64,000 nucleotides of DNA from Candidatus Nomurabacteria bacterium (GTDB taxonomy: Bacteria; Patescibacteriota; Minisyncoccia; Phycocordibacterales; CALRBL01). The notes beneath the pieces were generated by a model, which made no database searches, was not told where the DNA came from, and worked only from the letters and a program-made list of their open reading frames with translations. The DNA is taken from contig CAWIDS010000001.1 in the NCBI GenBank assembly GCA_963834935.1, forward strand, positions 301,500 to 365,499, read 5' to 3'. Positions 1,911 through 63,120 of the stretch are shown here, piece by piece. Position numbers and translations under genes: made by a program. Each line of letters opens with the position of its first letter. Position 1 is the first letter of the stretch.

Positions 1911-4250
1911 TCAGACCCTTATCAATCTCTGATGTTTCATCAATTCGCTTATCTGCATCCAGAAGAATGACCATACCCACACAATAATGATGAGTGAAAG
2001 TGATATTGGAGTTGTAAGAAAGCCAGTTAAGGCAAAAAGCGTAGCAAGAAGCTGGGTTGCTAGCGTCGCAACAATGACCTGCTTGCTTGGAAGATACTTA
2101 AACCAGTTTTCCTTGGTATGAGCCACATACACAAGCATATGACCTGACACTGTAAGCTTCAGGAAGAAGACGGTCTGAATAATCGTCCATGGCAAATGCA
2201 GATAATTAGTCATTATAAAAAGAAGTATCAGGCTGTTTGCCACCCCTGTAAGACCGAAAAGGGTGCTTAGGGTGAATCGTTTCTTTGCATCGACATGCGC
2301 CGGCTTTTCGGTCAGTTTTACCCGATCAAAAGCAAGAGAGACAATCGGAATATCATTAAGAAATGCGAGCACTATAAGCTGCACAGGGGTAAGAGGATAT
2401 GTTTTATATATCAAGCCTATGACCGCGATGGTAATAATCACCCTGAAGCTTTCCGAAATCCGATAAAGCGAATAATTATAAAGGCGGGTAAAGATCTTTC
2501 GCGCTTCTATGATGGCGTCTTTTATGACTGAAATCCCGCTTTTTAAAAGGATAATGTCAGCGCCGCCTTTAAGCGCATCAACCGCATTGCTGACAGCGAA
2601 TCCTACATCGGCATTTTTCACTGCAGGCAAATCGTTCACTCCGTCCCCTGTCATAGCAACAACATGATTATTCCGTGCGAGCGTGACTATCTCATATTTG
2701 TCCTTAGGAAGCACCTCAGCAAAACCACCTATCGAATCAAATTGCTTTTCCAAAAGCGCTTTATCTTCATCTAATATGCTCCTTTGATAAATCTCCCCTT
2801 TTATCCCAAGCTCTCGGGCAATTCTTCTGCTTATTTCAAGACTATCTCCCGTAATCATTTTGACTTCGATGCTGTTTTGACCCATGAAATCAATTGTTGA
2901 TTTTGCATCAGCATGGAGGCTGTCCGCAAGAAGGATAATGCCGATCAATTGCATATCTCTTTCTTCCATGCCTTCCTTGTTGACTGCGACAGCTAATGCC
3001 CGGTAACCATCATCTGCCCCCATTCTGACTGTCCTATCAAATGATTCTTTGTCTGCCACATTCAATGCGCACAGCGAGGAAATGATCTGAGGGGCTCCCA
3101 GAGATATGACAGACCTTTTACCATCGATTTCAACGATTGCCGTACTGCGCTTTCTTTCAGAATCTCCAGGAGTATAGTCAACCTGCTCATATGGAACTAG
3201 TGAAAGTTGTTTTGCCTTTTTATAAATAGCTGAATCTATGAGATCTTCAGGAGACCTCGAAATAGCGCTTGAGGCAAGCGCTATTACTTCACTTTCTGTG
3301 AAATGTCCGGATGTAATGACGCGTTCTATCTTGATGATATTTTGAGTGAGGGTGCCCGTCTTGTCTGAAAGAAGCAAATCGACATTAGCCAGATCCTCCA
3401 ACGAAGCCAGCCTCCTTACCACCACCTGTTTTTTTGAGAGACTCAACACTCCGATGCTTATGATAAGGCTCATCACTGTGGGTAATGCGACAGGTATTCC
3501 GGCAATCAAAAGACTGAGATCAAGAGTGACCACGCTAATGACAGGAGAATGTGTCATGACGAGCGTAATGGTCAATACGATGACAACAATAATGCTTATT
3601 ATCGATATGAATCGAGAAACGGAAAGAATATCCTTCTCAAGGGAACTTTGGCGAAGCTTGGTATCCACCGAAGCGATAGTCTTCCCAAAAAATGTCTTCT
3701 CGCCAGTTGCTGTCACTTTTCCAATACCCTTACCAGTCGTTATGTACGATCCGGAATATGATATATCATTTATATTTTTTTCTTTTGGTAATGACTCCCC
3801 TGTAAGAACTGATTCATTTATAGAAAGGTTTTTTGATTCAATAATAAGGATGTCCGCCGGTATCAGCATGCCAATCTTCAAATCGATAATGTCCTCTTCA
3901 ACAAGATCGACTGAATTTATATAAACCCATTCATTGTCTCTAAGAGTCTTCACTTTGATCTGAAGATTTTTCTGAAGCTCTTTGATTGATTTGTCGGCTT
4001 TTCTCTCATGCCACATGCTGATAGCGAAATTTGAAAAGAAAAGAAAAAGTATTATCCAGAAATCAACATCATTGCCTGCATACAATGAGAGAAAAGCAGC
4101 CGCAAGAAGCATGAGCGAAACGGGTGAAAAAAATCCTTTGAAAAACAAAATGAGATAGTTTTTCTTTTTTTCAGGAAGACTGTTAGGACCGTTCTGTTTA
4201 AGTAATATATTAGCCTGCTCTGTGGTTAAGCCTCTATTTATTTCTGCCAT
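1911..4250 (-). CDS. P-type cation-transporting ATPase (P2/P3-type; Mg2+/Ca2+/H+ class)
   Basis: 779 aa; phosphorylation motif LLSDKTGTLTQN, hinge motif MTGDGVNDLPAVKNADVGFAV, N-terminal cation_ATPase_N-like segment, 8+ TM helices. Confidence 0.9.
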   Translation of the reverse strand: MAEINRGLTTEQANILLKQNGPNSLPEKKKNYLILFFKGFFSPVSLMLLAAAFLSLYAGNDVDFWIILFLFFSNFAISMWHERKADKSIKELQKNLQIKVKTLRDNEWVYINSVDLVEEDIIDLKIGMLIPADILIIESKNLSINESVLTGESLPKEKNINDISYSGSYITTGKGIGKVTATGEKTFFGKTIASVDTKLRQSSLEKDILSVSRFISIISIIVVIVLTITLVMTHSPVISVVTLDLSLLIAGIPVALPTVMSLIISIGVLSLSKKQVVVRRLASLEDLANVDLLLSDKTGTLTQNIIKIERVITSGHFTESEVIALASSAISRSPEDLIDSAIYKKAKQLSLVPYEQVDYTPGDSERKRSTAIVEIDGKRSVISLGAPQIISSLCALNVADKESFDRTVRMGADDGYRALAVAVNKEGMEERDMQLIGIILLADSLHADAKSTIDFMGQNSIEVKMITGDSLEISRRIARELGIKGEIYQRSILDEDKALLEKQFDSIGGFAEVLPKDKYEIVTLARNNHVVAMTGDGVNDLPAVKNADVGFAVSNAVDALKGGADIILLKSGISVIKDAIIEARKIFTRLYNYSLYRISESFRVIITIAVIGLIYKTYPLTPVQLIVLAFLNDIPIVSLAFDRVKLTEKPAHVDAKKRFTLSTLFGLTGVANSLILLFIMTNYLHLPWTIIQTVFFLKLTVSGHMLVYVAHTKENWFKYLPSKQVIVATLATQLLATLFALTGFLTTPISLSLIIIVWVWSFFWMQISELMKHQRLIRV

Positions 4251-11479: not shown

Positions 11480-13192
11480 ATGGCTCATCTTGGCTATTTG
11501 GAGTACAATAGCGGCATGGTTCATTTCGACGAAGACGAGCAGAATAGGCACCTCCGCGACCTCAGATTGCAGGAAGAGGAGGAGCTTGCCGAAATACTCT
11601 CAAAGAAATACGGCGTGGGGTATATAAACCTCGCCCGTTCCCCTATCAGCACCGACGCTCTCGGCCTCATACATGAAGAAGAGGCTAAGATGCATGGCGT
11701 TGCGGCTTTCGCTCTTGTCGGCAAGAAAGTAAGCGTCGGAACTCTCGCTCCTGAAGATGAAACGACGAAAGACATTGTTGCTTCTCTTTCAGGCAAAGGA
11801 TACATTCCGACTCTCTATCTGGTTTCTCATGCCAGTCTCGAAAAAGCCTGGTCTCGTTACTCAGACATCACTGCTTCGAACAAAAGCAAGAAAGGTGCGC
11901 TTGATATTTCCACCGAAGAGATCGAGCAATTCCTGAAAGAGAACGAGAAGATGAGCGATGTCCGTGCCCGAATCAATGATGCGATCGTCCTTCAGACTTC
12001 GTACCGCATTTCCCGCATCCTTGTGGTCATCCTTGCCGGCGCGCTCTCATTGAAATCTTCCGACGTGCACATCGAGCCTGAAGAAAAGGAAGCGCGGGTG
12101 CGTTTTCGTCTCGACGGCGTGCTTACCGAAGTGGCTTCGTTCAACAACAGCACCTATTCCCTCCTGCTCTCGCGACTGAAGCTGCTTTCGAATCTCAAAT
12201 TGAATATAAAAGAAAACGCGCAAGACGGGCGTTTCAGCATCCATATCGAAGATGATGATATCGAGATCCGTACCTCTACCATTCCGGGCGCTTATGGCGA
12301 ATCAATCGTCATGCGTATCCTCAATCCGAAATCCTTGAATGTCTCGCTCGAGGAAATGGGAATTCCCGAACATCTTTATGAGACCTTGATGAAGGAAATC
12401 CAGAAGCCCAACGGAATGATCCTGACCACAGGACCAACAGGATCCGGAAAGACTACCACTTTGTATTCCTTCATGAAGAAAGTGATGAGCAGCGAAATAA
12501 AGATAATCACCATCGAAGATCCTATCGAATATCACCTTGCTGGAGTGACGCAGACCCAAGTGGAAGTAAAAAAAGGGTATACCTTCGCCAATGGGCTGCG
12601 TTCGGCCCTCCGTCAAGATCCTGATGTGATAATGGTTGGAGAGATCCGAGACAAGGAGACGGCAGAAATCGCCATCAACTCGGCACTTACCGGCCACTTA
12701 GTGTTTTCGACGCTCCACACCAACAATGCCGCCGGCGCTTATACCAGACTCGTCGACCTCGGCATGAATCCGAAGATTATTCCCTCAGCCTTGAATGTGG
12801 CCATCGCTCAGCGTCTCGTCAGGCGCCTCTGCAAGCAATGCGTAAAGAAAGTGCCTTTAGTTGGAGATGAGCTATCTCGGGTAAAACCCATCTTCGACAG
12901 GATAAAGGAAAGAGGCTTGCTCCAGGAAGATCTGGATATTTCCTCGCACTATCAAGCAGGGGGTTGTGAAAGTTGTCACATGACCGGATACAAAGGCCGG
13001 GTCGGCGTCTTCGAGGCAATATTCAAAAGCGAAGCGGTGGAGAATGTGGTGCGAGACAATCCAAGCGAGCGAGATATTCAGAAGGCAGCTCTCGGCCAAG
13101 GGTTCATGACTTTGGCGGAAGATGGCGTCGTAAAAATCCTTAAAGGAATAACTTCTATAGAAGAGTTGGAACGGGTAGTGGAACTGATTTAA
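11480..13192 (+). CDS. pilB: Type IV pilus assembly / type II secretion ATPase (PilB/GspE family)
   Basis: 570 aa; N-terminal T2SSE_N-like domain, Walker A GPTGSGKTTTLYS, Asp box, His box, C-terminal Cys cluster (CKQC...CESC). Confidence 0.9.
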   Translation: MAHLGYLEYNSGMVHFDEDEQNRHLRDLRLQEEEELAEILSKKYGVGYINLARSPISTDALGLIHEEEAKMHGVAAFALVGKKVSVGTLAPEDETTKDIVASLSGKGYIPTLYLVSHASLEKAWSRYSDITASNKSKKGALDISTEEIEQFLKENEKMSDVRARINDAIVLQTSYRISRILVVILAGALSLKSSDVHIEPEEKEARVRFRLDGVLTEVASFNNSTYSLLLSRLKLLSNLKLNIKENAQDGRFSIHIEDDDIEIRTSTIPGAYGESIVMRILNPKSLNVSLEEMGIPEHLYETLMKEIQKPNGMILTTGPTGSGKTTTLYSFMKKVMSSEIKIITIEDPIEYHLAGVTQTQVEVKKGYTFANGLRSALRQDPDVIMVGEIRDKETAEIAINSALTGHLVFSTLHTNNAAGAYTRLVDLGMNPKIIPSALNVAIAQRLVRRLCKQCVKKVPLVGDELSRVKPIFDRIKERGLLQEDLDISSHYQAGGCESCHMTGYKGRVGVFEAIFKSEAVENVVRDNPSERDIQKAALGQGFMTLAEDGVVKILKGITSIEELERVVELI

Positions 13193-21488: not shown

Positions 21489-22217
21489 ATGTTCATAGCC
21501 ACCTTTTTCGGACTTTTTTTCTACAATCCACTTTACAACGGCCTTGTCTTGCTTCTTTCTTACCTCCCTTCTCCTGACATAGGCTGGGCGGTCATTATTT
21601 TTACCGCTTTCATCAAGCTTTTGCTTTTCCCTCTCTCAAGGCAGGCTGTCCGTACTCAGATGAAGCTTAAGGAGGTAGCTCCCGAGCTTGAAAGGATAAA
21701 AGAGCAATATAAGGATGAAAAAGAGAAGCAAGCCAAGGAAATGATGCTTGTCTACCAGAAAAATGACATAAATCCTTTCTCAGGATTCCTTCTCGCCTTG
21801 ATCCAGATCCCAATCATCCTCGCCCTCTACTTCATCTTCCTTAAGGGGGGACTTCCGGTCATAAATGCCAAGATACTCTACTCTTTCGTGAAGATTCCGG
21901 CCAACATAAACACTCATTTCCTTAATCTGATAGACGTAAGCAAGCCTCAGATAGTGCTTGGCATCCTCGCCGGCATCAGCCAATATGTACAGGTTCAGTT
22001 CTCAGTTCCGCCCATCAAGAAAGTCGATAACCCAGGCTTCAAGGACGACCTCGCACGCAGTATGAACATGCAGATGCGCTATATACTCCCCTTCTTCGTC
22101 TTCCTTATCTCATTCAAGGTCTCAGGAGCGGTCGCTCTCTACTGGATAACGGGAAATCTCTTCACTATCGGACAGGAATTATATATGCGAAAGCATCTAA
22201 AGAATAAGAAAGCTTAG
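21489..22217 (+). CDS. yidC: Membrane protein insertase YidC/Oxa1 (short form)
   Basis: 242 aa, 5 TM helices, conserved rpmH-rnpA-yidC order. Confidence 0.85.
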   Translation: MFIATFFGLFFYNPLYNGLVLLLSYLPSPDIGWAVIIFTAFIKLLLFPLSRQAVRTQMKLKEVAPELERIKEQYKDEKEKQAKEMMLVYQKNDINPFSGFLLALIQIPIILALYFIFLKGGLPVINAKILYSFVKIPANINTHFLNLIDVSKPQIVLGILAGISQYVQVQFSVPPIKKVDNPGFKDDLARSMNMQMRYILPFFVFLISFKVSGAVALYWITGNLFTIGQELYMRKHLKNKKA

Positions 22218-23410
22218 ATCTTGAGGTTCCAAAGGGTAAGGTCTCTCTTATTCATGAAAAGAAGGTAATCTTCGTCGGGAGAAAGTTTTGGATTGATCAC
22301 GTCGATTTGGACACCTCCCTCATTCTGGAGATTTGCTACATTGCTGGTGTTTCCAGTTAATGCGTCAATTGTCTCTATATTGTCGTTGAAGAAGACTTTT
22401 CCTTGATACCATACATCTGGATACACTCCGTTGGGAATGCTTGAGGTGACGGCACAGTAAGCCAAAGAAGGCATCTTTACAGACCATACGCATTTATCAG
22501 GTATCAAAGGACTTGAAAGAGGGTTTTCTACTCCTGTCCTTATATTCAATATGCCGGAAACCAAAATGTCATTCTTATTTTGCGAATAGATGGCGTATTT
22601 TGCATCAGGCGAGACCGATACCACAAGGCCGTTGCGGGCACTCAGAAGCTCTGTCATCGCTTTTGTCTTTATGTTATAGAGGTAGCTCAGGTTCTGAGTC
22701 TTTGCCGAAGGCGCAGTTGTCAGAAGAGCGATGCCGCTGCTTACCATCTGGACGTTCCATTTTTCAACAGCGCTTGAAAAGACAATGCTTTTCTTTGCTG
22801 GGAAGGAATAAAGTGATCCTTGCGCCCCATTCGGAGTGCTTTCGATGCCGAAATAGCTGTCTTTGGCTGGAGAAAGAGATAGTGAGCTTATTTCCGATGG
22901 AAGGAATATTCCAGTCGTCGAAGAATTGCTTATTGAGCCGATAAAAGTCTCTATTTTTTCAGTTGCATCGTCAAGCGTCCTGAAAATGACGTTATTGCCG
23001 CCCTTTCCTATGTATGCCTCATACACTTTGGGAATGGTAGTATTCGAAATCTTGCTTATAGCAAGGTTGTCCGGAGCAGTCTGGAAGATGTTTCCTGTAG
23101 CCCGATCGACGTATTCGATGCCAGTGAGTTTTGTGGTGAGCGTAATGAAGTCACCCCCCGCAACCGGCGTGGTAGTGATCTGTCGGAGTCTGGGAATAGA
23201 TGTTGAAGAGGTGCTTGTCGAGATTATTGCCAAAGTCGAAGAAGAAAGTATCGTGCCGGTAGTGTCTACAAGCTGTCCTGTGGCAGTTACTGAAGAAGGG
23301 GTGGGTTTTGATACTTTAGTATTAGTGAGATAGAAATATCCTCCGACAAGCGCCCCCAATACCAGTATGAATGCGATAAGGATTACGGCTGTAAGATACT
23401 TTCGTGACAT
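22214..23410 (-). CDS. Membrane-anchored Thr/Ser-rich protein with probable beta-propeller domain (hypothetical)
   Basis: 398 aa; N-terminal TM helix, long beta-rich ectodomain; first... last gene of the T4SS-like locus. Confidence 0.55.
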   Translation of the reverse strand: MSRKYLTAVILIAFILVLGALVGGYFYLTNTKVSKPTPSSVTATGQLVDTTGTILSSSTLAIISTSTSSTSIPRLRQITTTPVAGGDFITLTTKLTGIEYVDRATGNIFQTAPDNLAISKISNTTIPKVYEAYIGKGGNNVIFRTLDDATEKIETFIGSISNSSTTGIFLPSEISSLSLSPAKDSYFGIESTPNGAQGSLYSFPAKKSIVFSSAVEKWNVQMVSSGIALLTTAPSAKTQNLSYLYNIKTKAMTELLSARNGLVVSVSPDAKYAIYSQNKNDILVSGILNIRTGVENPLSSPLIPDKCVWSVKMPSLAYCAVTSSIPNGVYPDVWYQGKVFFNDNIETIDALTGNTSNVANLQNEGGVQIDVINPKLSPDEDYLLFMNKRDLTLWNLKI

Positions 23411-23442: not shown

Positions 23443-24399
23443 TTATTCTCCTCTATAAAGTGGACCCCAATAATGATTCTTTTGTGTCCCAGTAATACTA
23501 CCTGTATCACTGATTTGATTTTTTAATATTATGATAGCTGCTTGAGTGTTATATTTAGGATCATCTATTATTTGTTGTGGAGTAACTCCGTATTTTGCTG
23601 CAAGGCCTTGCACTGCGTTATCTCCAACACTAAGAGAGTATAAACCTTCTGAAGAAAAGTTTGAACTGCCATCTTGAGAATGTGCCGTAGTATTATCACT
23701 TGGATTAAAGCCAGATTCGCTATTTGCAATATTTGCGAGCAAGCTCACATATCCCTGCGCTGTTACTGTCCCGTCTGGAAAATATTTTGCTGCATCTGAA
23801 GGGCTAAGGTTTAAAATTCCCGAATCTTGTATTTGTTGGAGCGTATAAGCATTCATATCTGTAGGAAGCCCATTTGCACCGTCTGTAGGAAAATCTGTGC
23901 CTGATTGGGTGCCGTCTGCTATGTCTCCGCTTCCGTCCCCAGGAGAAGTTCCATCCGAACCACTCGCCCCGACATTATAACCAACATTTGTTACTTGGAT
24001 CGGAATAGGTGTTACTAATACAGACGTTATATTTAAATTGCTTCCTATAAGCCTCGGATCGACGAATTTCAAGATGACATAAGAGCCTAATGCGACCAAT
24101 AAGCCGAGAAGGGCAGCATTGATACGGTCCTGGCCTTCGGTTTTTTTCCCCATCGCATCGCTCGACATGTATTCGATACCCCCAACGACGATCATGAGGA
24201 CCGCAAGCGCACTGCAAAGGGCGATGCCAAGGGCGTACATTGAATTCAGATATTGGCTGAGGGAATTGCTACTGCTTATATCTACAGGATTAGTAACATA
24301 ATTAGAAATAGGCGCTAAGGGCACGTAGCTTTGAGCAAGAGCGATGAAAGGAGAAATCATTATTAAAGCGAGGATTGCGAATAAAAGAGTTTTTTTCAT
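23443..24399 (-). CDS. TrbC/VirB2-like pilin fused to C-terminal SLT/VirB1-like lytic transglycosylase-like domain
   Basis: Signal peptide, then two hydrophobic helices separated by charged loop (YALGIALCSALAVLMIVVGG / INAALLGLLVALGSYVILKFV) as in conjugative pilins; C-terminal ESGFNPSD...EGLYSLSVGDNAVQGLAAKYG resembles SLT ES-x-FNP...GLMQ core. Confidence 0.45.
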   Translation of the reverse strand: MKKTLLFAILALIMISPFIALAQSYVPLAPISNYVTNPVDISSSNSLSQYLNSMYALGIALCSALAVLMIVVGGIEYMSSDAMGKKTEGQDRINAALLGLLVALGSYVILKFVDPRLIGSNLNITSVLVTPIPIQVTNVGYNVGASGSDGTSPGDGSGDIADGTQSGTDFPTDGANGLPTDMNAYTLQQIQDSGILNLSPSDAAKYFPDGTVTAQGYVSLLANIANSESGFNPSDNTTAHSQDGSSNFSSEGLYSLSVGDNAVQGLAAKYGVTPQQIIDDPKYNTQAAIIILKNQISDTGSITGTQKNHYWGPLYRGE

Positions 24400-24400
24400 A

Positions 24401-25429
24401 TTAGAAATTTATTTTTACCGATCCGGTGGCGCCTTGGAGGATTCTCGCTGAATTCTCGAGAATTGCCTCGATCACCGAGCTTCCCTTCTGGTTGGTTGAA
24501 TTCCTGAAAGTGGCATAGTTCTGATTTTCAGCCTGGGCAATAGGATTTCCGTTGATAGACCATGAATATTTAAGTGTCGGATCGCTTTTTAATACCGCGC
24601 TCGCATAGTATGGATAGGCGCCGACAGTGACTTCGGAATCAGTCATTTGGAAATCATTTGCTCCAAGCTCAGTATTGAAAAGGGTTCCGTACAAGGGATT
24701 TTTCTCATAGAACATCATCTCAGGCTCTTCCGGGGAAACTAACATCGAGCCTGTGCCGGTAATGCTTCCGTCCAAAGAAGATACGTCTACTTGCACCAAG
24801 ACGTCTTTTCCGAGGATGTCTTCAGTATAAGAAAGGGTGTTTTTACCGTAGCCAGAAAGGCTTCCCTGCACCGTGCCATCGATTGTCCATTTATAGATAA
24901 GGTTTTTAGGATTTACGCTTGCTCCGCTTGGCGTGAAGAGGTTAGGCATGGCTATGAAAGTGATATCCCCTTCCTTGGTAAAGATAGCCTTTCCTTTATA
25001 AAAAGGAGGAGTATAGCCTGAAGCTTCATAGATGATTGGAACTTCCTGCGAAGAAACGCTTGCCGTCTTTATGATGTCCGGGCTGCCGTCTGAAGGAGTG
25101 ATGTCGGCTGAGACGTTCTGAACGACTCCTTTATCCCCAGCTGTGACTGAAAAAGTGGTAAGGCCGGTATCTTGCTGGACAACTTTTCCGTTCACTGACC
25201 AAGAAATAGAGTCGGCGTTCAGGTCAGTTCCATAAGCAGCCAAGGTGAAGGTGACCGTATCGCCAGGATTAGGATTGGTCGGCGTCACGTCCAATGTCAC
25301 CTGCTGCTGGATGTCGCCTGATTGGATCGGATCATAACTTTGTGCTGAGCTTTTTTGTGCAAAGTAAGAGAAACATACGAAAGTAAAAACAATTAACAAA
25401 AAAACAAAGAGAATTGAACTTTTTTTCAT
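24401..25429 (-). CDS. Secreted beta-rich protein (hypothetical, Ig-like repeats)
   Basis: 342 aa, signal peptide, repetitive Thr/Ser/Gly-rich beta-sandwich-like segments. Confidence 0.55.
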   Translation of the reverse strand: MKKSSILFVFLLIVFTFVCFSYFAQKSSAQSYDPIQSGDIQQQVTLDVTPTNPNPGDTVTFTLAAYGTDLNADSISWSVNGKVVQQDTGLTTFSVTAGDKGVVQNVSADITPSDGSPDIIKTASVSSQEVPIIYEASGYTPPFYKGKAIFTKEGDITFIAMPNLFTPSGASVNPKNLIYKWTIDGTVQGSLSGYGKNTLSYTEDILGKDVLVQVDVSSLDGSITGTGSMLVSPEEPEMMFYEKNPLYGTLFNTELGANDFQMTDSEVTVGAYPYYASAVLKSDPTLKYSWSINGNPIAQAENQNYATFRNSTNQKGSSVIEAILENSARILQGATGSVKINF

Positions 25430-25469: not shown

Positions 25470-26324
25470 TCACAAAACATTTGCAAACTTATAACCTACA
25501 ATACCATTAAAAGGTCTTATACCCGCATTATGTTTATTCCAAGCAGCCATAAGCACCGGATCACTTTTATCATCGTTACTAATACTTCCATTTCTCATTA
25601 TATCTGCTGCTTTTGATAACTTTATATTATCCTCTCTTGTTCTATTCGATTTTTTATTTAATTGGTCTAAGGCATCATTGCTAGATTGCTGATATTCTCG
25701 CATTCTTTTATTTTCTGCTTCTGCTGCAAGGAATTCTCTTTCTGTGGTATTCCGGTCATTACGAATATTTAGTGTTTTAATCTCTTCTTTTTCCTCCTCA
25801 ACCTCTGATTGTTGGAGCTGTTTATCTTGTACTTGTTTAGACTGTTCCTGTTGCTGCCTATCTCGAACCATCTGTAACCGCGTCATTTTCTGCTGCTGAT
25901 CCTGCTGGACTTGTATCTGCTGCGCTTTTATCTGGACTTCATTCTGCTTTTCCCATTTCTTGTTGTTCTGAACGGCAAGCCACCAGTTGTAACAATGATC
26001 AAGGCTCCAGAATGGCAGTGCATCGAGGTCGGGGATTTCTTCCCCAAGAAAAGTAGCGACCATTCCTAGGACTTTCATGGTCATATCATCAGAACCACTT
26101 CCAACCTCTCCTCGTATCCATAGATAAAAAGAGTAGGATATCTCTACTCCAATATCTATAAAGCGGTTTATGATTACTCCCGATTCAAAAAAAAGGTCCA
26201 AAAGAAACTGAACAAGGTCAATTATTAGGAATGCTCCGAGAACCAAACCCCACTCCGTGTTGCTTATTTTGCTTTTGGTGATCTGGGCCATAGGTTTACA
26301 GCTTGCGAGCCATATCCTCTTCAA
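25470..26324 (-). CDS. Membrane protein with Gln-rich coiled-coil C-terminal half (hypothetical; start uncertain)
   Basis: 284 aa ORF, 2 TM helices then QQIQVQQDQQQ... coiled coil; immediately downstream of VirB4-like gene. Confidence 0.45.
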   Translation of the reverse strand: MKRIWLASCKPMAQITKSKISNTEWGLVLGAFLIIDLVQFLLDLFFESGVIINRFIDIGVEISYSFYLWIRGEVGSGSDDMTMKVLGMVATFLGEEIPDLDALPFWSLDHCYNWWLAVQNNKKWEKQNEVQIKAQQIQVQQDQQQKMTRLQMVRDRQQQEQSKQVQDKQLQQSEVEEEKEEIKTLNIRNDRNTTEREFLAAEAENKRMREYQQSSNDALDQLNKKSNRTREDNIKLSKAADIMRNGSISNDDKSDPVLMAAWNKHNAGIRPFNGIVGYKFANVL

Positions 26325-28117
26325 GCTCTGCTCGCGCTTTCTTCATTGCGAGGACTTGGGCAGGATCCGAGGTGATGATCTGGTCTTCTGTATACGAGGC
26401 GATAATCTTGATGGCAACATGCTTGAGGCCGGCGAAGAAGATTCCCTCCCCTACATCCGATTCAAGAAGAAGATATTTTTCCTCATCGGTTAGGTTGAAG
26501 GTTTTTTGCACTGCATCGATTGAAGAAGGTGATTGCTTGAGAAGAAGCTGGATCGAGGAGTTGGTGATGATCGGCAATCCGTAAGGTGATTTCAGGAAGT
26601 CCTCGACGTCCTGAGTAATGGTAGCAAGGCCGAGATAGTATTTTCGTCCTCGTTTTGCCAAGCCGAGAAGGAATGAGGCAGTGTCTTCTGATTTCATCAT
26701 CCACCATGCCTCGTCGATGACCAGAAGCCTTTTCTTGAGCTCTTTTCGGATGGCATTCCAGATGAAGTGGGTGACGATATACATTGCTACAGGCTTGAGT
26801 TCGTCTTCCATGTCTCGCACTGAGAAGACGACAAATTTCTTGTTAATGTCGACATTTGTCGGCTGATTGATGAAGCCTGCCCATGTTCCGCGAGTATATT
26901 TTGAGAGTTTTGTACCAGACATTCCGCTCCTTCCATTCCCGCAAGCACCATTTCGAAGTCGGACATCAAAGGCGGCTCGATATCAGTGAAATTCGAGTCG
27001 GGAGTAATATCTTTGAGTGCGTAAGTTTCGCTAATAGCTTTGTCGATGATGGCATCTTCTTCAGGGCTTAGTCCACCGAGCATGATGCGGAAAAGGCCGA
27101 CGAGGTTGACGATATTCGAGCGGAGGACGTCAGCATCTGATTCATCTGGCCGAGGATGAGGAAGGTCGAACGGATTGATGTGGTGCTCGGAGGTAGAGGA
27201 GATGTTGAAATAGCGGCCACCGGTAGCTTCAGCCATGTATTCATATTCCTTTTCAGGGTCGATGACGATGACATCGGCATCGAACATGAGTGTTCGGAGG
27301 ATTTCGAGCTTGGTAGCGTATGATTTTCCGGATCCGGCTTTGGCGAAAGTCACGGAATTGTAGTTTTCAAGCGAGAAGCGGTCGAAAAGGACAAGCGTTG
27401 AATTGTGGCGGTTGATGCCGTAAAGAATTCCTTTGTCAGAGGTAAGGTCGAAAGAAATGAATGGAAAGAGGCTTGAGAGAGCGGTGAAGAATTGAGCTTC
27501 GAGTGGATTTCCAGAAGGTCGTCTGCGATAGGTAGCGTGCTCTTGAAAGCCTTGTTCCTGCTGGAAAAGCGCGGGCTTGAGATAGACAAGCTTTGCTTCG
27601 AGGATTGATTTCATTTCCGATTCGATTTTATCGAGTTCAGCGCTCGAATCTCCATAAAGTGAGATATAAAGACCGACATCGAAGATCCTTTCTTGTGCCT
27701 GCTGCAGATCGTCGCGAAGCTTCTCAAGGTCTTGATAGGCAGTATCAAGCATCGGATCGCGGACCAAGCCCTTCTCTTCTCTGATGTGGATCTGGCTTTG
27801 CACTTCAGCGACTTTCTTTTGAAATTGGCGAAGCATTTTCGTGTTTCAATGGGATGGATGAAAATGGAAATATCAAAAACTTTGTCGAGGTTGATGATCG
27901 GCGAGAACCAGTTGTCGCTCAGATAGCGCGGATAAGAAATCACAAAGAAGCTCCTCACAATCTTGTTGCCGAGGTTTATTTCTTTCGAGCTAATTTTCAG
28001 CGCAGAAGGCGAGATGATATCTTTCAGGTCAAGCTCTTGGGACTGATAAAGCTCGCTTGGCAAGCTTGTCAGGTTCTCATTCTTTTGTTTTTTTGTAAAA
28101 ATATCGAGTAGTCCCAT
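26296..28117 (-). pseudogene. virB4: VirB4/TraC/CagE-family type IV secretion ATPase, interrupted by two frameshifts
   Basis: Three overlapping frames (27611..28117, 26787..27836, 26296..26922) that read through as one protein: Walker A AKAGSGKSY, Walker B LLVIDEAWWMM, GLATITQ; shift 1 at the T4 run 27837-27840, shift 2 near 26920-26945. Confidence 0.75.
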
Positions 28118-28118
28118 G

Positions 28119-28619
28119 TTATTTAGTATGAATCGGCTTCTCTATCTCTCCAGGGTTGAATGACTTGTAGAAAAGCTCGATCAGCTCCTCATTTTCAAGC
28201 TCAACCATCCTGATGCCGCAGCGCGTAAGTCCTTCTTCGACCACCGCCACCCTTTGCTCGAGCTGGCCGATGTTTTCTTTGAAAGTGACATTCTTGTCTT
28301 CGGCATTTCCTTTCTTCGGCCAAAAACTGGGGGCGTATAAGGAATCACTACAAAGAAATTCTTGGTCATGATATTGCTGCTTTCGGTAAGCGTCCTGACG
28401 AATTCGACATATTGCCTGACTTGGAGCTTCATCAGGTCGGTTGTCTGTTCCGTTTCCCTTTTTTCGAGTATGTCGAGATAAGGCTTGATGTTGGAGGCGG
28501 CGCGATTGGACGCATATTTGTACTGAAAAGTTCAGGGAATTGAGGAAATTTTGGAACTGGCCGATGATTGCCGCCTGCTCGTCAGATGATTTCAAAGCGA
28601 AGTTGAGTGATGAAGCCAT
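28119..28619 (-). pseudogene. Hypothetical ~170-aa protein upstream of VirB4, two frameshifts at homopolymer runs
   Basis: Protein-like translation switches frame twice (…NSLNF|QYKYASNRAASNIKPYLDILEK…VVIPYTPPVF|WPKKGNAEDKNV…ELENEELIELFYKSFNPG); junctions in TTTT and CCCCCAGTTTTT runs. Confidence 0.45.
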
Positions 28620-28746
28620 AACGATTGCCCTAAAGCGATCCGTATTCTAAGCACAACGAAATTATCTTTTATTTCCTCAATAGGGATGAATTCCTGAGTG
28701 GCTTTGGTTTGTGAGGCGAGTGACATATCGTGCTAAGTATACCCTA

Positions 28747-29196
28747 TTAGACTTTAATATTTAAGAGATCATTAAGGCTTTTTTCTTCTCCATCGTATTT
28801 TTTCGAAGCAAGGCTGCCTTTTATATCTTTTAAACTGCTTCTTCTTGTTGTAGGAATGGAGATGATAGCTGTCGGATCATATGACATGTCGATTTCCTTC
28901 GTGGGTACCGGCTTATTTTCTTTTTTCCAGATGTAAAGCTTGTTTTTGGTGAAAAAAAGCACGGCAGCTTGGACTTCGTCAAGGAATGGTCTGTTGTTAG
29001 GCTTGTAAAAAGTCAGGGCGACAAAGAAAGCAAGTACAGGCAAGGCAAGAGGGATGCCGATGAATGCGGGCGTCACGAAATGGTAGATGGTATAGGAAAT
29101 GCCGAGCCCTCCCGCAAGATAGATGAATTCCTTGAACGAAAGAGAAAAGAAAATCTTATCCTCGATCTCGATGAATTGTGGAACCTGGAACTTCAT
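28747..29196 (-). CDS. PrgI/VirB3-like small two-TM membrane protein
   Basis: 149 aa; MKFQVPQFIEIEDKIFFSLSFKEFIYLAGG... layout matches PrgI/VirB3-type proteins that precede VirB4 in Gram-positive-type T4SS. Confidence 0.45.
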   Translation of the reverse strand: MKFQVPQFIEIEDKIFFSLSFKEFIYLAGGLGISYTIYHFVTPAFIGIPLALPVLAFFVALTFYKPNNRPFLDEVQAAVLFFTKNKLYIWKKENKPVPTKEIDMSYDPTAIISIPTTRRSSLKDIKGSLASKKYDGEEKSLNDLLNIKV

Positions 29197-29212: not shown

Positions 29213-30964
29213 TTATTCCGAAACTACCCGAAGGACTTCTTCGATAGTAGTCACACCCTGCACCGCCTTGAATACCCCGTCTTCTATCATGGTAAGCATT
29301 CCTTCTTTCTTTGCCTGCGCTTCTATTTCATCTGACGTCGTTCCTTTCATGACTAATGCCTTGATAGGTGCGCTAACCTTGAGAATTTCATGTATGCCGA
29401 TCCTTCCCGCATAGCCATCTTCCGATTCAGCGCTTTTAATAGGCTTGTAGAACGGGATTGTCTGCCACTCCGCTTTTTCATCGACTATCTTTCTTTCTTC
29501 AGGAACTCCAGAACCCGGGCAATGTCGACTTTCTTGGAAAGCATATCAAGCTCATCTTTGGTGAGAAGGTATTTTTCCTTGGTGACAGCCAGTTTCCTGA
29601 TAAGGCGCTGGCCTATGATACATTCAAGGTCGAGACAAGAGGAATGGCTCTATGTGCATGTCGATGAAGCGTGGAATGGCGCCGGCGGCTGAATTGGTGT
29701 GAAGGGTCGAGAGTACAAGGTGTCCAGTGAGCGAGGCGTTGATGGCGAGGGATGCCGTTTCATTGTCGCGGATTTCCCCCACCATGATGATATCCGGGTC
29801 CTGCCTGACAAGGGAGCGGAGTCCCGAGGCGAAAGTAAAACCGATTTCTGGCTTTACTTGGGTTTGATTGATCCTCTTCATCTGGTATTCGACAGGATCC
29901 TCAATCGTGGAGATATTCACATCGGCTGTATTCAGGATATCTAGAACGGTATAGAGGGTCGTCGTCTTTCCTGACCCTGTCGGACCAGTAGTAAGGATCA
30001 TTCCAGTCGAGAGTTTTGTCGCTTCATATATCCTTTCTAATCCTTCTCCATGGAAGCCGAGATGCTCGAGGGTAAAGCCGGAAACATTTTCCCTAAGCAA
30101 ACGCATTACTGTCTTTTCTCCGTAGTACACAGGCAGGATAGACACTCGAAAAGAGACATTTTCCCCATTCATTTCGATCTTGAAACGGCCGTCTTGGGGA
30201 AGCCTTTTTTCGTCGAGCTTGAGGCTCGAAAGGACTTTGATGCGGGCTGTGATGGAATCGCCTGCATTTTTTGGCAAGATCATGGCGTCGTGAAGTATTC
30301 CATCTATGCGGTAGCGTACTACCACTTCATTTTCTTGAGGTTCGATATGAATATCCGAAGCGTTCTGGATGATGGCATGTTTCAGGAGCGTATCTACGAC
30401 TCGGACTACCGGCAAGTCCTCGGCCATCTTCTGAAGGTCTTTGATGTTGAGTTTGCCGTCCTTGTTCTGATCCCCGACTGATTTTATGGAGACTGATTCC
30501 TTCTGGATGATATCACCGAAGTCAGCCTTGAGGCTTTTCTGGTATTGGAGGATTGCCGACTTCATCGAATTCACGTCAGTAAGGCGTGGAAGAATCTTCA
30601 AGCCCACTTTCTTCTTGACGAAATCGAGTGCGCTCAAGTCATCGGTGTCGAGCATTGCCACCTCAAGCGTCTTATCATCTTTCTTGAAGCCGATGATATT
30701 GTGCTTGCGGGCAATCGGCTCGGGAATGAGAGAGAGAACACTGAAATCTATCTTTTGATCTTTGAGATCCACGAATGGGATCCCAAGTATGTAGGCTTGA
30801 ATTTTTCGGAGATCTTCCTCGGTAATCAGGCTTTTTTGCAGCAGAATATCACCCATGTCTACCCCCTTTTTCTCTGATTCTTCGCGTGCAGTAGCAAGTT
30901 CTTTTTCGGAAACCAATCCCGAATCCATTATGAACTTTTCAAATTGAGCTTTGTTTATGAACAC
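29213..30964 (-). pseudogene. Second PilB/GspE-family secretion ATPase, C-terminal region disrupted by >=3 frameshifts
   Basis: 446-aa frame with Walker A GPTGSGKTTT, Asp/His boxes stops at LLSRP*; the C-terminus continues in two other frames (…IIGQRLIRKLAVTKEKY… then …YKPIKSAESEDGYAGRIGIHEILKVS…GVTTIEEVLRVVSE*) homologous to the PilB C-terminus. Confidence 0.75.
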
Positions 30965-45599: not shown

Positions 45600-46625
45600 T
45601 TGAGGGAGTCCAAACCCTACTCTTTATTAAGTAACTTTGGAGAGTATGATACACTAATACGATATAAAAGTCAAACATGACCAAAAACCAATTTCTCTCT
45701 ATCTTGAAGCGTGCAATAAAGCACCGAGCAAAACCCCAAAGCGTTCCCTGTCGTTGCCTCGATTGTTGTAATGAAAGACAAAAGCGTCAAGGTAAGCCTG
45801 TAGGTGTTGCTTCGAAATGACCTTGTAAGTGCCTTTGATGCTTCTCTTTAGGTGAGCCACGAAAGTCTCAATGGTGTTGATATGAATATCACCTCTCACG
45901 TATTCTCCTTTGCTGTGGTCAACCGAGTGTCGGTCGTAAGTCTTATCAGATCTTTTGTATACCTTGCTACTGTCGGTGATGATGCTTGTAGCCTTAGTCT
46001 CGATATTCCTTTCAATGAAGTCCTGCATTGTCCTCGCAGAGCTGTCTTCCATGACTTCCGCTCTCATCTTTCCATATCGCTCTACCGCCATGGTGATGAT
46101 TGATTTTCTAGCCATTACTTGTCCTAGCTTTTCATTATTCTTTCCTGCGTTCCCTTTGCCTCCGAAGTAAGCAGTATCTATCTCCACGTCTCCTTTGAGC
46201 TTTAACTTGTCCTGTGGCAAAGCCTTGCGTATCAGGCTCAATATCCTCCAAGCGCACTTGTAGGTAACTCCAAGCTGTCGTTCCAGTTCCTTAGCCGAGA
46301 TACCGCTCTTGGCGTTTGAGAAGATAAAGATTGCATGAAACCACAAGGATAGTGGAGTATCTGACTTGTGGAAGATTGTAGTCGAAGCAGGGGCAATCTG
46401 AAAACGACACTTCGAGCATTGATACTGCTTGCGACCCTTTATCTGTCGGTACGTTCCGCCACATGAGCAAGAACGGCTGTGCAAGGTATCGAATATCAAG
46501 TCTAAGCATGTCTCGTCTGTGGGGAAGTCCCTCCTTAAATCTGCTATTGAGTATTTTGTTTCTTTTGCCATGTACCTATCCTATACCCTAGTGATTATGT
46601 TGTCAAGGGATAAGTGTGGATAACT
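45600..46625 (-). mobile_element. IS1595-family insertion sequence (boundaries approximate)
   Basis: Contains single transposase ORF; terminal inverted repeats not confidently resolved. Confidence 0.4.
45699..46571 (-). CDS. IS1595-family (ISXO2-like) DDE transposase with N-terminal zinc-ribbon
   Basis: 290 aa; N-terminal CxxC...CSKC zinc ribbon (transposase zinc-ribbon domain), DDE core, typical length. Confidence 0.85.
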   Translation of the reverse strand: MAKETKYSIADLRRDFPTDETCLDLIFDTLHSRSCSCGGTYRQIKGRKQYQCSKCRFQIAPASTTIFHKSDTPLSLWFHAIFIFSNAKSGISAKELERQLGVTYKCAWRILSLIRKALPQDKLKLKGDVEIDTAYFGGKGNAGKNNEKLGQVMARKSIITMAVERYGKMRAEVMEDSSARTMQDFIERNIETKATSIITDSSKVYKRSDKTYDRHSVDHSKGEYVRGDIHINTIETFVAHLKRSIKGTYKVISKQHLQAYLDAFVFHYNNRGNDRERFGVLLGALLHASR

Positions 46626-47393
46626 TTATTTCAGCTCAAGCAAAAGAGGGCAGTGATCTGAACCAGTTATATCTTCATATATGCTTGCCTTCTTGATCTT
46701 GTCCTTTAAGTCTTCGCTCACGAAGAAATAGTCTATTCTCCAGCCAACATTCCTTTCCCTCGCGAAGGTCTTCATATCCCAGTAGGTATATTTATCCTTG
46801 ATGTCTCCGTTCTTGAAACGGAAAGTATCTATGTAGCCGTGGGAAATGACTTTGTCGATCCATTTCCTTTCCTGGGGAAGGAATCCAGTGTTCATTGCAT
46901 TTTCCTTTGGTCGCGCAAGATCTATTTCCGTGTGGGCAGTATTCACATCACCACAGAAAATCACGGATACCCCTTTCTTTTTTAATTTGTCGACATATTC
47001 CAGAAAGGCATCGTAATATTTCATCTTGAAGTCCAAGCGGATAGGGCCACCTCCGCCATTAGGGAAGTAGATATTTATAAGAGTGAATTCCTCGAAATGG
47101 AGGGCGATAAATCGTCCTTCCTGATCGAGTTCTTCGACTCCAAGGCCATAATCAATGTTCAGAGGAGCTATTTTCGTATATATAGCCACTCCACTATAAC
47201 CCTTTCTCCCTTTTGAATGGTCAAAATAAGCTATATAACCCTTTATTTCTTTGAGTTCTAGCGGAAGCTGGTCAGGATGAGCTTTCGTTTCCTGAAAGCA
47301 GAACATATCCGGCTTTTCTTTGATGATCCAATTAAGCTTTCCTTTCTTATGCCAAGCCCGTATACCGTTTACATTCCATGAGATTATTTTCAT
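46626..47393 (-). CDS. xth: Exodeoxyribonuclease III (AP endonuclease, Xth family)
   Basis: 255 aa from MKIISWNVNGIRA; EEP-family motifs (QETK, GDVNTAH, SDHCP). Confidence 0.9.
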   Translation of the reverse strand: MKIISWNVNGIRAWHKKGKLNWIIKEKPDMFCFQETKAHPDQLPLELKEIKGYIAYFDHSKGRKGYSGVAIYTKIAPLNIDYGLGVEELDQEGRFIALHFEEFTLINIYFPNGGGGPIRLDFKMKYYDAFLEYVDKLKKKGVSVIFCGDVNTAHTEIDLARPKENAMNTGFLPQERKWIDKVISHGYIDTFRFKNGDIKDKYTYWDMKTFARERNVGWRIDYFFVSEDLKDKIKKASIYEDITGSDHCPLLLELK

Positions 47394-47397
47394 ATAT

Positions 47398-63119: not shown

Positions 63120-63120
63120 A

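Follow-up and report, generated by a model that had tools for sequence, protein, structure and literature searches.

The DNA analysed here (the window, a stretch of 64,000 nucleotides) comes from an ultrasmall bacterium of the Patescibacteria type, Candidatus Nomurabacteria, and carries a type IV secretion system (T4SS) gene cluster, whose genes are listed below from the first to the last of the block.

28747..29196, minus strand: PrgI/VirB3-like protein of 149 aa, first gene of the block (PF12666 PrgI, E 8.6e-10; synteny).
28119..28720, minus strand: TraC-like N-terminal VirB4 partner gene with at least three frameshifts (the 217-aa TraC-like protein of locus L001 matches two frames in tblastn; Pfam TraC-like domain in the orthologues).
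26296..28117, minus strand: VirB4-type ATPase gene, listed as three ORFs, with at least four frameshifts (P-loop_TraG/DUF87 matches; 78-84% identity to the 609-aa L001 orthologue over three frames).
25470..26324, minus strand: small membrane protein of 284 aa between VirB4 and the 342-aa gene (N-terminal ~150 aa conserved, C-terminal part Q/E-rich; matches genes of L001, L006, L007 and L008; no Pfam match).
24401..25429, minus strand: conserved upstream partner gene of 342 aa (N-terminal membrane helix and three beta-sandwich, Ig-like domains).
23443..24399, minus strand: the gene under study, here called cargo pilin, 318 aa plus stop (VirB2-like module, linker and DslA-like lysozyme-fold domain; ORF, full-length homologues and one-frame alignment with orthologues).
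22214..23410, minus strand: downstream gene of 398 aa, last of the block, with an N-terminal membrane helix, convergent with yidC (orthologues in L001, L006, L007 and L010; no significant Pfam match).

The same order (PrgI, TraC-like, VirB4, small transmembrane protein, ~340-aa protein, cargo pilin, ~400-aa protein), adjoining yidC/rnpA/rpmH/dnaA, is present in the window and recurs in six independent loci (L001, L006, L007, L008, L009 and L010). An oriC-proximal T4SS has been described for Patescibacteria (PMC12102498), and the block of the window is such a system. In the window, L001/L002, L006, L007 and L008, the cargo pilin occupies a fixed slot as the third gene downstream of VirB4. PrgI, TraC-like and VirB4 lie upstream of the cargo pilin in the same orientation, which is the VirB3/VirB4 neighbourhood of conjugative pilins, and the stop of the 342-aa gene is located 1 nt before the cargo-pilin ATG. 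For this 342-aa neighbour, which gave generic Ig-like matches only, a role as a cargo-specific immunity or inhibitor protein was considered and rejected, since the same gene is conserved beside cargo pilins with unrelated enzymes. The search of all six-frame ORFs with family HMMs detected no further pilin or hydrolase, the fusion being the only VirB2-like gene within the 64 kb. A promoter/terminator scan of the operon returned fewer sites than shuffled controls, and the Rfam matches in the window consist of five tRNAs only.

The cargo pilin is encoded by a single ATG-to-stop frame on the minus strand (the first-pass annotation had named no strand), along which the following elements could be recognized.

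24334..24399, minus strand: signal peptide, aa 1-22 (MKKTLLFAILALIMISPFIALA, followed by QS; hydropathy and sequence, with the cleavage site deduced from the A-x-A pattern).
24271..24333, minus strand: N-terminal segment of the mature protein, aa 23-43, containing the Y-x-P-L-A-P motif that the family conserves (consensus of four alignments; low pLDDT).
24061..24270, minus strand: VirB2-like pilin module, aa 44-113 (long helices 44-79 and 86-113, with a positively charged loop between them: K85, K86, R92).
23923..24060, minus strand: flexible linker, aa 114-159, rich in G/S/D/T/P (composition; pLDDT below 50 at aa 117-157).
23446..23922, minus strand: DslA-like lysozyme-superfamily (GH23/SLT-like) domain, aa 160-318.
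23713..23718, minus strand: catalytic E228-S229, the ES motif corresponding to DslA E143-S144 (GAATCT on the minus strand; Glu in 31/31 and Ser in 30/31 sequences of the fusion family).
23680..23682, minus strand: H240, a subgroup-conserved His at or adjoining the position of the second catalytic Glu of DslA, E154 (column alignment).
23467..23472, minus strand: Y310-W311, corresponding to the DslA Y228-W229 motif (Y in 31/31, W in 30/31).

A Kyte-Doolittle scan identified three hydrophobic stretches, namely, aa 1-22 (ending in ALA, before QS), ~53-78 and ~93-113, with the three basic residues in the short loop between the second and the third. The AlphaFold2 (AF2) model shows the two long helices, disorder at aa 117-157 and a confident C-terminal domain (~160-318, pLDDT mostly 85-93) in which the loop at aa 239-250 is of low confidence. 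The signal peptide and two-hydrophobic-helix N terminus proposed by the first-pass annotation are recovered by hydropathy, and the two helices also by modelling. The same annotation had described a C-terminal part of ~190 aa resembling soluble lytic transglycosylases (SLT); its motifs, E228-S229-G-F-N-P and G252-L-Y-S-L-S257, are present, but the size has to be revised, as the folded domain takes up ~160 aa after a disordered linker of ~45 aa. Both ends of the pilin module are predicted to face outside, in a topology that agrees with the positive-inside rule.

These features are shared with VirB2/TrbC-type pilins, and in particular with the PF18895 pilins of Patescibacteria (e.g., SEML1_0014-0019 of Southlakia epibionticum), which present a signal peptide, two hydrophobic helices and a short basic loop. 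The family-level PF18895 match, the VirB3/VirB4 neighbours and the occurrence, in the same loci, of cargo-less paralogues of the module found in the window family add to the likeness; "pilin" is the name of the family, and polymerisation is putative for every member. Different from these pilins, and from the small mature size without extra domains that characterises VirB2/TrbC proteins (PF04956), the cargo pilin bears a C-terminal enzyme extension of ~200 aa, so that the mature protein reaches ~296 aa, with a 160-aa enzyme domain, versus ~70-130 aa.

At the profile level, the window protein matches PF18895 (T4SS_pilin) with 18.6 bits (E 2e-3, profile positions 4-70 of 71) and PF01464 (SLT) with 17.5 bits (E 3e-3, aa 218-300), in both cases below the Pfam gathering thresholds (26.6 and 21.3 bits, respectively). 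Among the close homologues, however, 16/19 match PF18895 at E <= 0.01 (best 3.7e-10), 16/19 match SLT (best 4.9e-17) and 16/19 match both families. The pilin and SLT assignments of the first-pass annotation are thus sub-threshold for the protein itself and carried by its relatives, and with a family-specific pilin HMM the window protein reaches 119.5 bits. No NCBIfam model matches the latter, and no sequence-level match to solved VirB2/TraA pilins was found.

The joining of the two halves is genuine and far beyond chance. We retrieved 39 database homologues (best non-self E values from 5e-72 to 1e-41, coverage 85-100% of the length), and when 1.84 billion representatives were searched with a profile, ~60 of the 150 best-scoring proteins matched both halves in one stretch. 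The possibility that an assembly or frameshift error merged adjacent pilin and hydrolase genes might be raised, as the same assembly has indel problems 2-4 kb away; nevertheless, the single chain occurs in 71 of the 171 collected proteins (~60 clusters at 50% identity), from independent assemblies in NCBI, JGI, ENA and Logan, and the fusion is one ORF in all of the loci examined (8/8), which refutes an artefact and leaves it a practically negligible probability. The spacing between the pilin and enzyme HMM matches across the fusions has a median of 50 aa (range 34-130). The suggestion that a pilin is covalently joined to an SLT/VirB1-like domain is therefore supported well beyond this genome. 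No description of pilin-hydrolase fusions was found among the papers searched, and the window gene is one member of a broader group of "enzyme-carrying pilins", so far undescribed.

The state of the secretion system in this genome deserves separate consideration. Since at least seven frameshifts in total interrupt the VirB4 and TraC-like genes in this assembly, the T4SS machine may not work in this organism, and it could be supposed that the system is being lost and that the intact cargo-pilin ORF is a relic without a current role. The frameshifts, at least four in VirB4 and at least three in the TraC-like gene, are defined relative to orthologues of 78-84% identity, and long homopolymer runs are not enriched in the frameshifted stretch (4 of the 179 of the window), as would suit real decay. 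On the other hand, the frameshifts alternate between frames and then return, in a sequence that is otherwise highly conserved, so that local assembly or sequencing indels look likelier than long-term decay, and two junctions inspected by eye would fit a single base gained or lost in short runs of A or T. Furthermore, the genes for PrgI, the 284-aa and 342-aa proteins, the cargo pilin and the 398-aa protein are intact and aligned in one frame, and long ORFs elsewhere in the window are intact. We consider such a loss very improbable; in any case, it would bear on this genome alone and not on the fusion family.

As regards the enzyme domain, the SLT family is defined by three motifs, ES, GLMQ and AYNxG. 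In the window protein, the ES motif is present, at the end of the central helix within a lysozyme-superfamily fold; motif II is degenerate (GLYSLS), other fusion members having GLLQ[IL]S or GLMQIS; and motif III is absent, with [HA]YW[GS]xL in its place. While a single-sequence phmmer search of the window protein against the PDB gave no match, the family profile of the enzyme domain finds DslA (E 5.3e-29). In the predatory bacterium Bdellovibrio bacteriovorus, DslA (Bd0314; PDB 6TA9/6TAB) is a deacetylation-specific lysozyme that is tethered to the cell surface and works on the wall of the prey; its E143Q and E154Q variants are both inactive, and its Y228-W229 motif has been proposed to exclude acetylated GlcNAc (PMC7511926). 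The ES motif, S166 and Y228-W229 of DslA are all kept in the window family: E228, S250 and Y310 are invariant in the 31 fusion sequences, and S229 and W311 are each present in 30/31. The invariance of the catalytic Glu answers one of the doubts attached to the first-pass annotation, which had asked for its conservation. The layout is also comparable, with an anchor, a disordered linker of ~35-45 aa and then the enzyme, tethered to the surface of the producer.

However, the two proteins differ in several respects. DslA is anchored through a lipobox and the cargo pilin through a VirB2-type hairpin; the window domain contains no Cys, so that neither of the two disulfides of DslA is possible; and the gene of DslA lies in the exit regulon of a predator, whereas that of the cargo pilin, of putative enzyme activity, lies in the T4SS operon of a Patescibacterium. 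Moreover, the second catalytic Glu on strand beta1 (DslA E154, general base of the inverting hydrolase) is absent from the window domain and missing from its subgroup: the column aligned to it holds 15 E, 1 D and 11 H in the 31 sequences, and A239, with H240 adjacent, in the window. As this Glu is essential in DslA (PMC7511926) and the window loop is divergent and poorly modelled, one may ask whether the lysozyme-fold domain of the subgroup has become an inactive, glycan-binding foot that fastens the T4SS/pilin assembly to peptidoglycan. We regard this as improbable. E228 is invariant and Ser229 nearly so over all 31 sequences, His subgroup included, while the inactive YW proteins cited alongside DslA lost exactly the catalytic Glu, and a single Glu suffices in GH23 lytic transglycosylases (PMC7511926). 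In addition, the substituted position holds a conserved His and not random residues, which suggests retained function.

Given that the subgroup is devoid of the second Glu of DslA, a single-acid, transglycosylase-like mechanism appears plausible from the sequence when weighing a hydrolase against a lytic transglycosylase. Similarly, the retained YW motif hints at a GlcN-containing, deacetylated glycan as the substrate. No CE4 peptidoglycan deacetylase gene was present among the ~50 ORFs scanned in the 64-kb window. Gram-positive bacteria commonly have a deacetylated wall (PMC7511926). Enzyme activity, chemistry, substrate preference and the wall that would be cut, be it that of the producer or that of the host, are all predictions here.

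A wall-degrading-type enzyme whose gene lies in a T4SS cluster and is conserved together with it falls into the functional class formed by VirB1 and the VirB1-like hydrolases known from Gram-positive bacteria (PrgK of pCF10, TraG of pIP501 and CwlT of ICEBs1), which are likewise lysozyme/SLT-superfamily enzymes inside T4SS operons. PrgK, TraG and CwlT combine SLT, CHAP/NlpC-type and metallopeptidase domains, whereas cargo pilins carry one catalytic domain per chain, and CHAP-like and M15 domains occur in paralogues or in other genomes, on pilin modules of their own. Different from the simple transmembrane helix of the Gram-positive enzymes, the anchor of the cargo pilin is pilin homologous; and its domain is of the DslA branch, without SLT motif III and, in the window protein, below the SLT gathering score. 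The hydrolases of monoderm T4SSs are membrane anchored and essential (PMC12857230; PMC12102498). In S. epibionticum, the genes directly downstream of virB4, both of them essential, encode a multidomain hydrolase and an M15B peptidase (SEML1_0006/0007; Wang et al. 2023, Table S2). The first domain of SEML1_0006 is DslA-like (ECOD e6tabA1, i.e., DslA, residues 61-255), and its gene lies just downstream of virB4 at the start of the chromosome; it differs from the cargo pilin in that no PF18895 match is listed for it (Wang 2023, Table S2), in that two further domains (phage-tail lysozyme/glucosaminidase and Cys peptidase) follow in the chain, and in that the pilins of this organism are separate small genes.

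It is possible to hypothesize that the cargo pilin is a pilin-anchored, T4SS-dedicated peptidoglycan-cutting enzyme, the "missing VirB1", a reading to which, with its predicted activity, we give an even chance. The Sec signal peptide would be removed and the VirB2-type hairpin would insert into the cytoplasmic membrane, with the charged loop inside and both ends outside, so that the ~45-residue linker could place the DslA-family domain on the outer side of the membrane, level with the cell wall. The pilin module would serve as anchor and as targeting element to the site of T4SS assembly, and the wall would be opened only where the machine, or a pilus-like structure, must pass; in function, the protein would correspond to VirB1 and to the membrane-anchored hydrolases of Gram-positive T4SSs. 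The position downstream of virB4 that it shares with the essential DslA-like hydrolase of S. epibionticum supports a dedicated hydrolase, and so does the cargo seen on the pilin module in other genomes, which includes the SLT, CHAP/NlpC-like and metallopeptidase (M15) types found together in the Gram-positive enzymes. Furthermore, most VirB2-containing genomes of Patescibacteria have no recognisable VirB1, and their putative pilus may not need one (PMC12102498); pilin-enzyme fusions would fill this gap. Against this reading stand the loss, in the subgroup of the window, of the Glu that inactivates DslA as E154Q, in a loop of low confidence, the frameshifts that may disable the machine in this organism, and the fact that the 64-kb window contains no other VirB2-like gene as an anchoring neighbour.

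A different view emerges when the cargo pilins of other genomes are compared. Across genomes, no fewer than seven kinds of wall-active domains are found on this pilin module, the other heads being SLT, CHAP-like (CHAP/NlpC-like), M15, 3D, GH75-like and YkuD; in the GH75 chitosanase-like cargo, both catalytic columns are invariant. Within one locus, the modules of paralogues are 81-100% identical (100% at the DNA level in L007), versus 44-59% between genomes, and their C-terminal cargo is completely different; the cargo-less pilin that adjoins the fusion in L001 and L007 shares 81-100% identity with the module of the latter. Some loci line up as many as three cargo pilins in tandem, with near-identical modules but different enzymes, such as Dsl, CHAP-like and a domain without assigned family in L008, and SLT, CHAP-like and a domain that is M15-like by eye in L009. 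For the P0026-type cargo of L010, Pfam, NCBIfam and phmmer against the PDB were all negative; by eye only, it has an RlpA/double-psi beta-barrel look.

A plain transmembrane anchor would be enough for a VirB1-like role and would not explain a pilin module nearly identical to those of co-resident pilins, a feature that fits filament co-assembly better. Accordingly with such a picture, VirB4 might extract the fusion, which would co-assemble with plain pilins, or with itself, into a T4SS filament decorated by lysozyme domains with the C terminus outward; these heads would cut the host wall at the contact between epibiont and host, opening a route of uptake or delivery, and the same head might also clear the wall of the producer on its way out. 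Near-identity of the modules within a locus would be expected here, because all of them must fit one assembly, and the arrays of L008 and L009 point the same way. Polymorphic effectors also combine a conserved delivery module with swappable enzymatic C termini. An analogous arrangement is found in the "evolved" VgrG3 of the Vibrio cholerae T6SS, a structural subunit with a fused wall-degrading effector domain: it likewise places a swappable peptidoglycan hydrolase at the C terminus of a polymerising or structural module, although machinery and fold are unrelated, and filament incorporation and target-cell delivery of the cargo pilins are putative.

Other observations are in line with an enzyme directed at the host. 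The closest characterised relative, DslA, is the tethered enzyme of a predator that works on another cell (PMC7511926); two unrelated cargo types, the Dsl-like domains with the YW motif and the GH75 chitosanase-like ones, point to deacetylated glycan, common in Gram-positive walls (PMC7511926); and epibiotic growth requires the pilin arrays of Patescibacteria (Wang 2023; FEMS review). Conversely, no T4SS pilus has been seen so far in any Patescibacterium, for which a "potential to elaborate conjugative pili" only has been noted (PMC12857230). No plain pilin was found near the fusion in the window and in L006, so that a filament would there consist solely of 32-kDa subunits with globular heads, which may not pack. 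P0061 and P0068, with 3-4 pilin modules in one chain, are a poor fit to one subunit per filament position, and the enzyme repertoire matches equally well the remodelling of the own wall by Gram-positive VirB1-like proteins. On balance, display towards the host appears to us a tentative and rather unlikely reading. More doubtful still is its extended form, taken as a whole, in which the Patescibacteria T4SS "pilus" would be a modular enzyme-display filament of co-polymerised cargo and plain pilins, drilling the host wall for feeding with a set of wall-degrading heads that is specific to each lineage (DslA-type lysozyme, SLT, CHAP-like amidase, M15 peptidase, 3D, GH75 chitosanase-like and YkuD), some of these heads apparently being tuned to deacetylated glycan, the window gene providing one drill head.

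Patescibacteria represent a large share of bacterial diversity. The only genetically tractable member needs a T4SS and a VirB2-like pilin array to live on its host (Wang 2023; PMC12857230). The present family indicates that a predicted wall hydrolase can share one chain with the "pilin", at a fixed position of the operon, and thereby provides a concrete protein that may fill the missing VirB1 function; much of what has been counted as pilins would then be enzymes on a pilin handle, which may explain how these machines pass through cell walls. The question of their role becomes accessible through defined proteins and point mutants, and the link to DslA, together with the chitosanase-like cargo, raises the testable idea that deacetylated glycan may be the preferred substrate.

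The gene at 23443..24399 on the minus strand is a single ORF of 318 aa, from the ATG start through the stop codon, and lies in a co-oriented block of type IV secretion system (T4SS) genes:

28747..29196, minus strand: PrgI/VirB3-like protein
about 28119..28720, minus strand: TraC-like protein
26296..28117, minus strand: VirB4
25470..26324, minus strand: 284-aa membrane protein
24401..25429, minus strand: 342-aa protein
23443..24399, minus strand: cargo pilin, a VirB2-like pilin carrying a lysozyme-fold domain
22214..23410, minus strand: 398-aa membrane protein

The pilin-enzyme fusion proposed in the first-pass annotation is real. A database search returned 39 homologues, about 20 of them similar in length and aligning end to end at 36-50% identity, and in all eight related loci fetched the fusion is a single ORF, split in none. 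Furthermore, when a profile was searched against 1.84 billion representative proteins, about 60 of the top 150 matched it whole in one stretch, and both domains were recognized in 71 of 171 collected proteins by domain HMMs built in this analysis. PF18895 and PF01464 annotations are precomputed on several homologues. With the Pfam profiles, the window protein itself scored below the gathering score for both T4SS_pilin (18.6 versus 26.6 bits) and SLT (17.5 versus 21.3 bits), whereas T4SS_pilin and SLT were each matched by 16 of 19 family members (best E values, 3.7e-10 and 4.9e-17). On the pilin side the matching profile is PF18895; PF04956 was matched weakly by two related cargo pilins.

Hydropathy places a signal peptide at aa 1 to 22 (ending ...ALA/QS) and two more hydrophobic segments at about aa 53 to 78 and 93 to 113; the AlphaFold2 model, built from 19 homologues (mean pLDDT, 69.9), shows long helices at 44 to 79 and 86 to 113, in agreement with the layout originally described. 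The short loop between the two segments contains K85, K86, and R92 and, by the positive-inside rule, would be cytoplasmic after cleavage, with both termini outside; because of this topology, the C-terminal domain would be extracytoplasmic, at the peptidoglycan side. In the model, residues 117 to 157 are disordered (pLDDT, <50), and from about residue 160 to the C terminus there is a confident helical domain (pLDDT mostly 85 to 93), except for the loop at 239 to 250.

The N-terminal domain matches PF18895 over nearly the entire profile. The fusion's own module is 81% identical to the neighboring cargo-less pilin in locus L001 and 100% identical, DNA included, in L007, and this near identity marks it as a true local pilin-family member rather than an arbitrary hairpin. 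That PF18895 is homologous to TrbC/VirB2 is based on the Pfam naming and on the double PF18895/PF04956 matches reported for the pilins of Southlakia epibionticum (Wang et al. 2023, Table S2); phmmer and family profile searches of the PDB found none of the solved VirB2/TraA pilins by sequence. The pilin modules of P0029 and L009:9457-10440 gave sub-cutoff matches (E = 1e-6 and 3e-3) to NCBIfam Mbov_0395, "pilin-like conjugal transfer protein," known from Mycoplasma ICEs, which hints at VirB2-like modules in other monoderm T4SSs as well. Three or four tandem modules occur in one chain in P0061, P0068, P0085, P0090, P0110, P0115, P0118, and P0120, some of them ending in an SLT domain, an arrangement that fits poorly with a simple one-subunit pilin.

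As for the enzyme domain, the segment singled out in the first pass is present as E228-S-G-F-N-P and G252-L-Y-S-L-S. Searched against the PDB sequence set, a profile of 31 fusions found DslA, the deacetylation-specific lysozyme of Bdellovibrio bacteriovorus, over the whole domain (DslA 82 to 234; E = 5.3e-29), the next match, EmtA, reaching only 5e-3; the window domain by itself aligned with DslA at E = 8e-7. DslA is a lysozyme acting on GlcNAc-deacetylated peptidoglycan, an inverting hydrolase that uses E143 (ES motif) and E154 (strand beta1, supported by S166), and acetylated GlcNAc is proposed to be kept out by its Y228-W229 motif (PMC7511926). When the 31 fusions were aligned with DslA, the catalytic Glu proved conserved, the E143 column (E228 in the window) being Glu in 31/31; Ser occupies the S144 column in 30/31, and S166, Y228, and W229 are kept in 31, 31, and 30 fusions, respectively. 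Since the ES, S166, and YW columns are conserved and the profile matches DslA, the domain is assigned on sequence grounds to the DslA branch of the lysozyme/GH23-like superfamily. The E154 column contains 15 Glu, 1 Asp, and 11 His residues; the window has A239, with H240 one residue off. The Glu/Asp subgroup is DslA-like (Y-x-E ... GLLQ[IL]S ... YWS[TV]LR), and the His subgroup, the window's own, features DHSQG ... GL[FY]SL[ST] ... HYWGPLYRG. Thus, the domain retains its YW motif and general acid, whereas DslA's general base is missing in the window's subgroup. Since one Glu suffices for GH23 lytic transglycosylases (PMC7511926), the SLT-like chemistry first suggested would be possible in this subgroup.

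The pilin module occurs without the Dsl domain in 97 of the 171 proteins, most of which still have C-terminal extensions of 150 to 250 aa, and in other Patescibacteria at least six other wall-active domains are found on it:

P0061: canonical SLT, with 3 to 4 pilin modules in the chain (Pfam E, 1.5e-21)
P0114: 3D domain (Pfam E, 1e-13)
P0094: YkuD_2 (Pfam E, 8e-30)
P0104: Peptidase_M15_3 (Pfam E, 7.6e-6)
9-member group: CHAP/NlpC type (profile E, 1.4e-9 to endolysin Lys2972; T6SS amidase Tse1 weakly)
13-member group: GH75 chitosanase-like (profile E, 2.7e-7 to V-Csn)

In the GH75-like group, the columns of both V-Csn catalytic residues, D148 and E157 (PMC9485262), are invariant. The two multimember groups are those aligned as A4 (group of P0023) and A5 (group of P0037), and there are further extension groups (P0027, P0028, P0029, P0031, and P0026). 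The window gene's syntenic slot holds a different cargo in L010, and in L009 VirB4 is followed directly by the first cargo pilin of that locus, which bears a canonical SLT. Arrays of three cargo pilins with differing heads occur at L008:3766-6539 and L009:6151-10440. Within one locus (compared at these two arrays, L001:10001-11433, and L007:10001-11586), the modules are 81-100% identical, versus 44-59% between genomes; homogeneous modules with differing cargo therefore indicate that the module evolved in concert or was recently duplicated, while the heads were swapped.

The block faces yidC-rnpA-rpmH convergently, and dnaA and dnaN adjoin; block order and origin genes are alike in L001/L002, L006, L007, and L010, and L008 and L009 keep the order but lack the origin flank. 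The window T4SS is the oriC-proximal, relaxase-less system described for Patescibacteria (PMC12102498), and the homologues' taxon labels include Patescibacteria group, Candidatus Saccharibacteria, Zambryskibacteria, and Paceibacterota. The 342-aa and 398-aa neighbors are retained regardless of which enzyme the pilin bears. For the 342-aa protein, encoded immediately ahead of the cargo pilin, 189 homologues are found in Patescibacteria; its confident AlphaFold2 model (pLDDT, 89.5) comprises a membrane helix and three beta-sandwich domains, with generic Ig-like matches only in a fold search. In L009 the block is otherwise syntenic, but an inserted GIY-YIG nuclease gene (3106-3426) separates PrgI from the TraC-like gene. 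The three genes that immediately precede PrgI in L001 (263, 458, and 659 aa) have homologues at 61465-63998 (plus strand), about 32 kb from the block; the last runs past the window end, and the T4SS gene set appears to be split between two places here. Two PilB-type (T2SSE) ATPase genes are present at 11480-13192 (plus) and 29624-30964 (minus); the second directly adjoins the block, as in L006, which puts type IV pilus genes beside those of the T4SS here.

Compared with 78-84%-identical orthologues, VirB4 occupies three frames with at least four frameshifts and the TraC-like gene has at least three, giving at least seven over 26296-28720 (minus; frames alternating -1/-3/-1/-3/-2), which could reflect either an error in the local assembly or inactivation in the very recent past. 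This stretch shows no enrichment of long homopolymer runs (4 of the window's 179); two junctions, read by eye, look like short A or T runs changed in length by a single base. The flanking T4SS genes are all intact, as are long ORFs elsewhere in the window. Elsewhere in the window, an IS1595-type transposase (45699-46571), an endonuclease/exonuclease/phosphatase-family gene (46626-47453), and a tyrosine recombinase (47398-48423), all on the minus strand, lie a few kilobases from tRNA genes at 40069, 41894, 42645, and 42804 and may mark with them a mobile-element insertion site. Next to a UvrD helicase gene and a LysM-LysM-M23 peptidase gene (51978-53192, minus) lies a 1,294-aa ORF (53288-57172, plus) that no Pfam model matched at E <= 1e-4.

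The best-supported reading, held with moderate confidence, is that the cargo pilin is an anchored, VirB1-like wall hydrolase dedicated to the T4SS, in which the pilin module would serve as anchor and targeting device. Its operon position is consistent with this role, and it would correspond in function to VirB1 and to the hydrolases that Gram-positive T4SSs anchor in the membrane. SLT, CHAP/NlpC-like, and M15 cargoes are domain types combined in the latter. The VirB1-like reading also fits S. epibionticum, in which the essential genes just after virB4 encode a multidomain hydrolase, its first domain assigned to DslA's ECOD family, and an M15B peptidase (Wang et al. 2023, Table S2). The 2025 survey reported no VirB1 for most VirB2-containing genomes and proposed that none is required; as its tables assign one label per protein (PMC12102498), pilin-hydrolase fusions would have counted as VirB2. 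The main rival, held more tentatively, is host-directed display, in which the module polymerizes into an extracellular filament that presents the enzyme to the host wall: it is favored by the homogenization of modules within loci, the effector-like swapping of cargo, and the precedent of DslA, a lipoprotein with a disordered linker of about 35 aa that is thought to remain predator-tethered while working on the prey wall (PMC7511926). Against it, no T4SS pilus has been observed so far in any Patescibacterium, and no plain pilin lies near the fusion in L006 or in the window, where the cargo pilin is the sole protein in 64 kb matching the family pilin HMM. Anchoring and display are not exclusive, and the small remaining probability falls to a noncatalytic binder or relic.

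PF18895 pilins, DslA-type lysozymes, and T4SS-associated hydrolases are each already known, and the fused proteins are in public databases under automatic labels limited to "MAG: pilin," "Transglycosylase SLT domain," and "hypothetical protein"; a domain-architecture search could easily have revealed the fusion. Our literature searches found no paper describing the fusion or its conserved position, nor its DslA relationship, cargo range, or module homogenization. The fusion is of real interest to researchers of T4SSs and of the epibiotic lifestyle.
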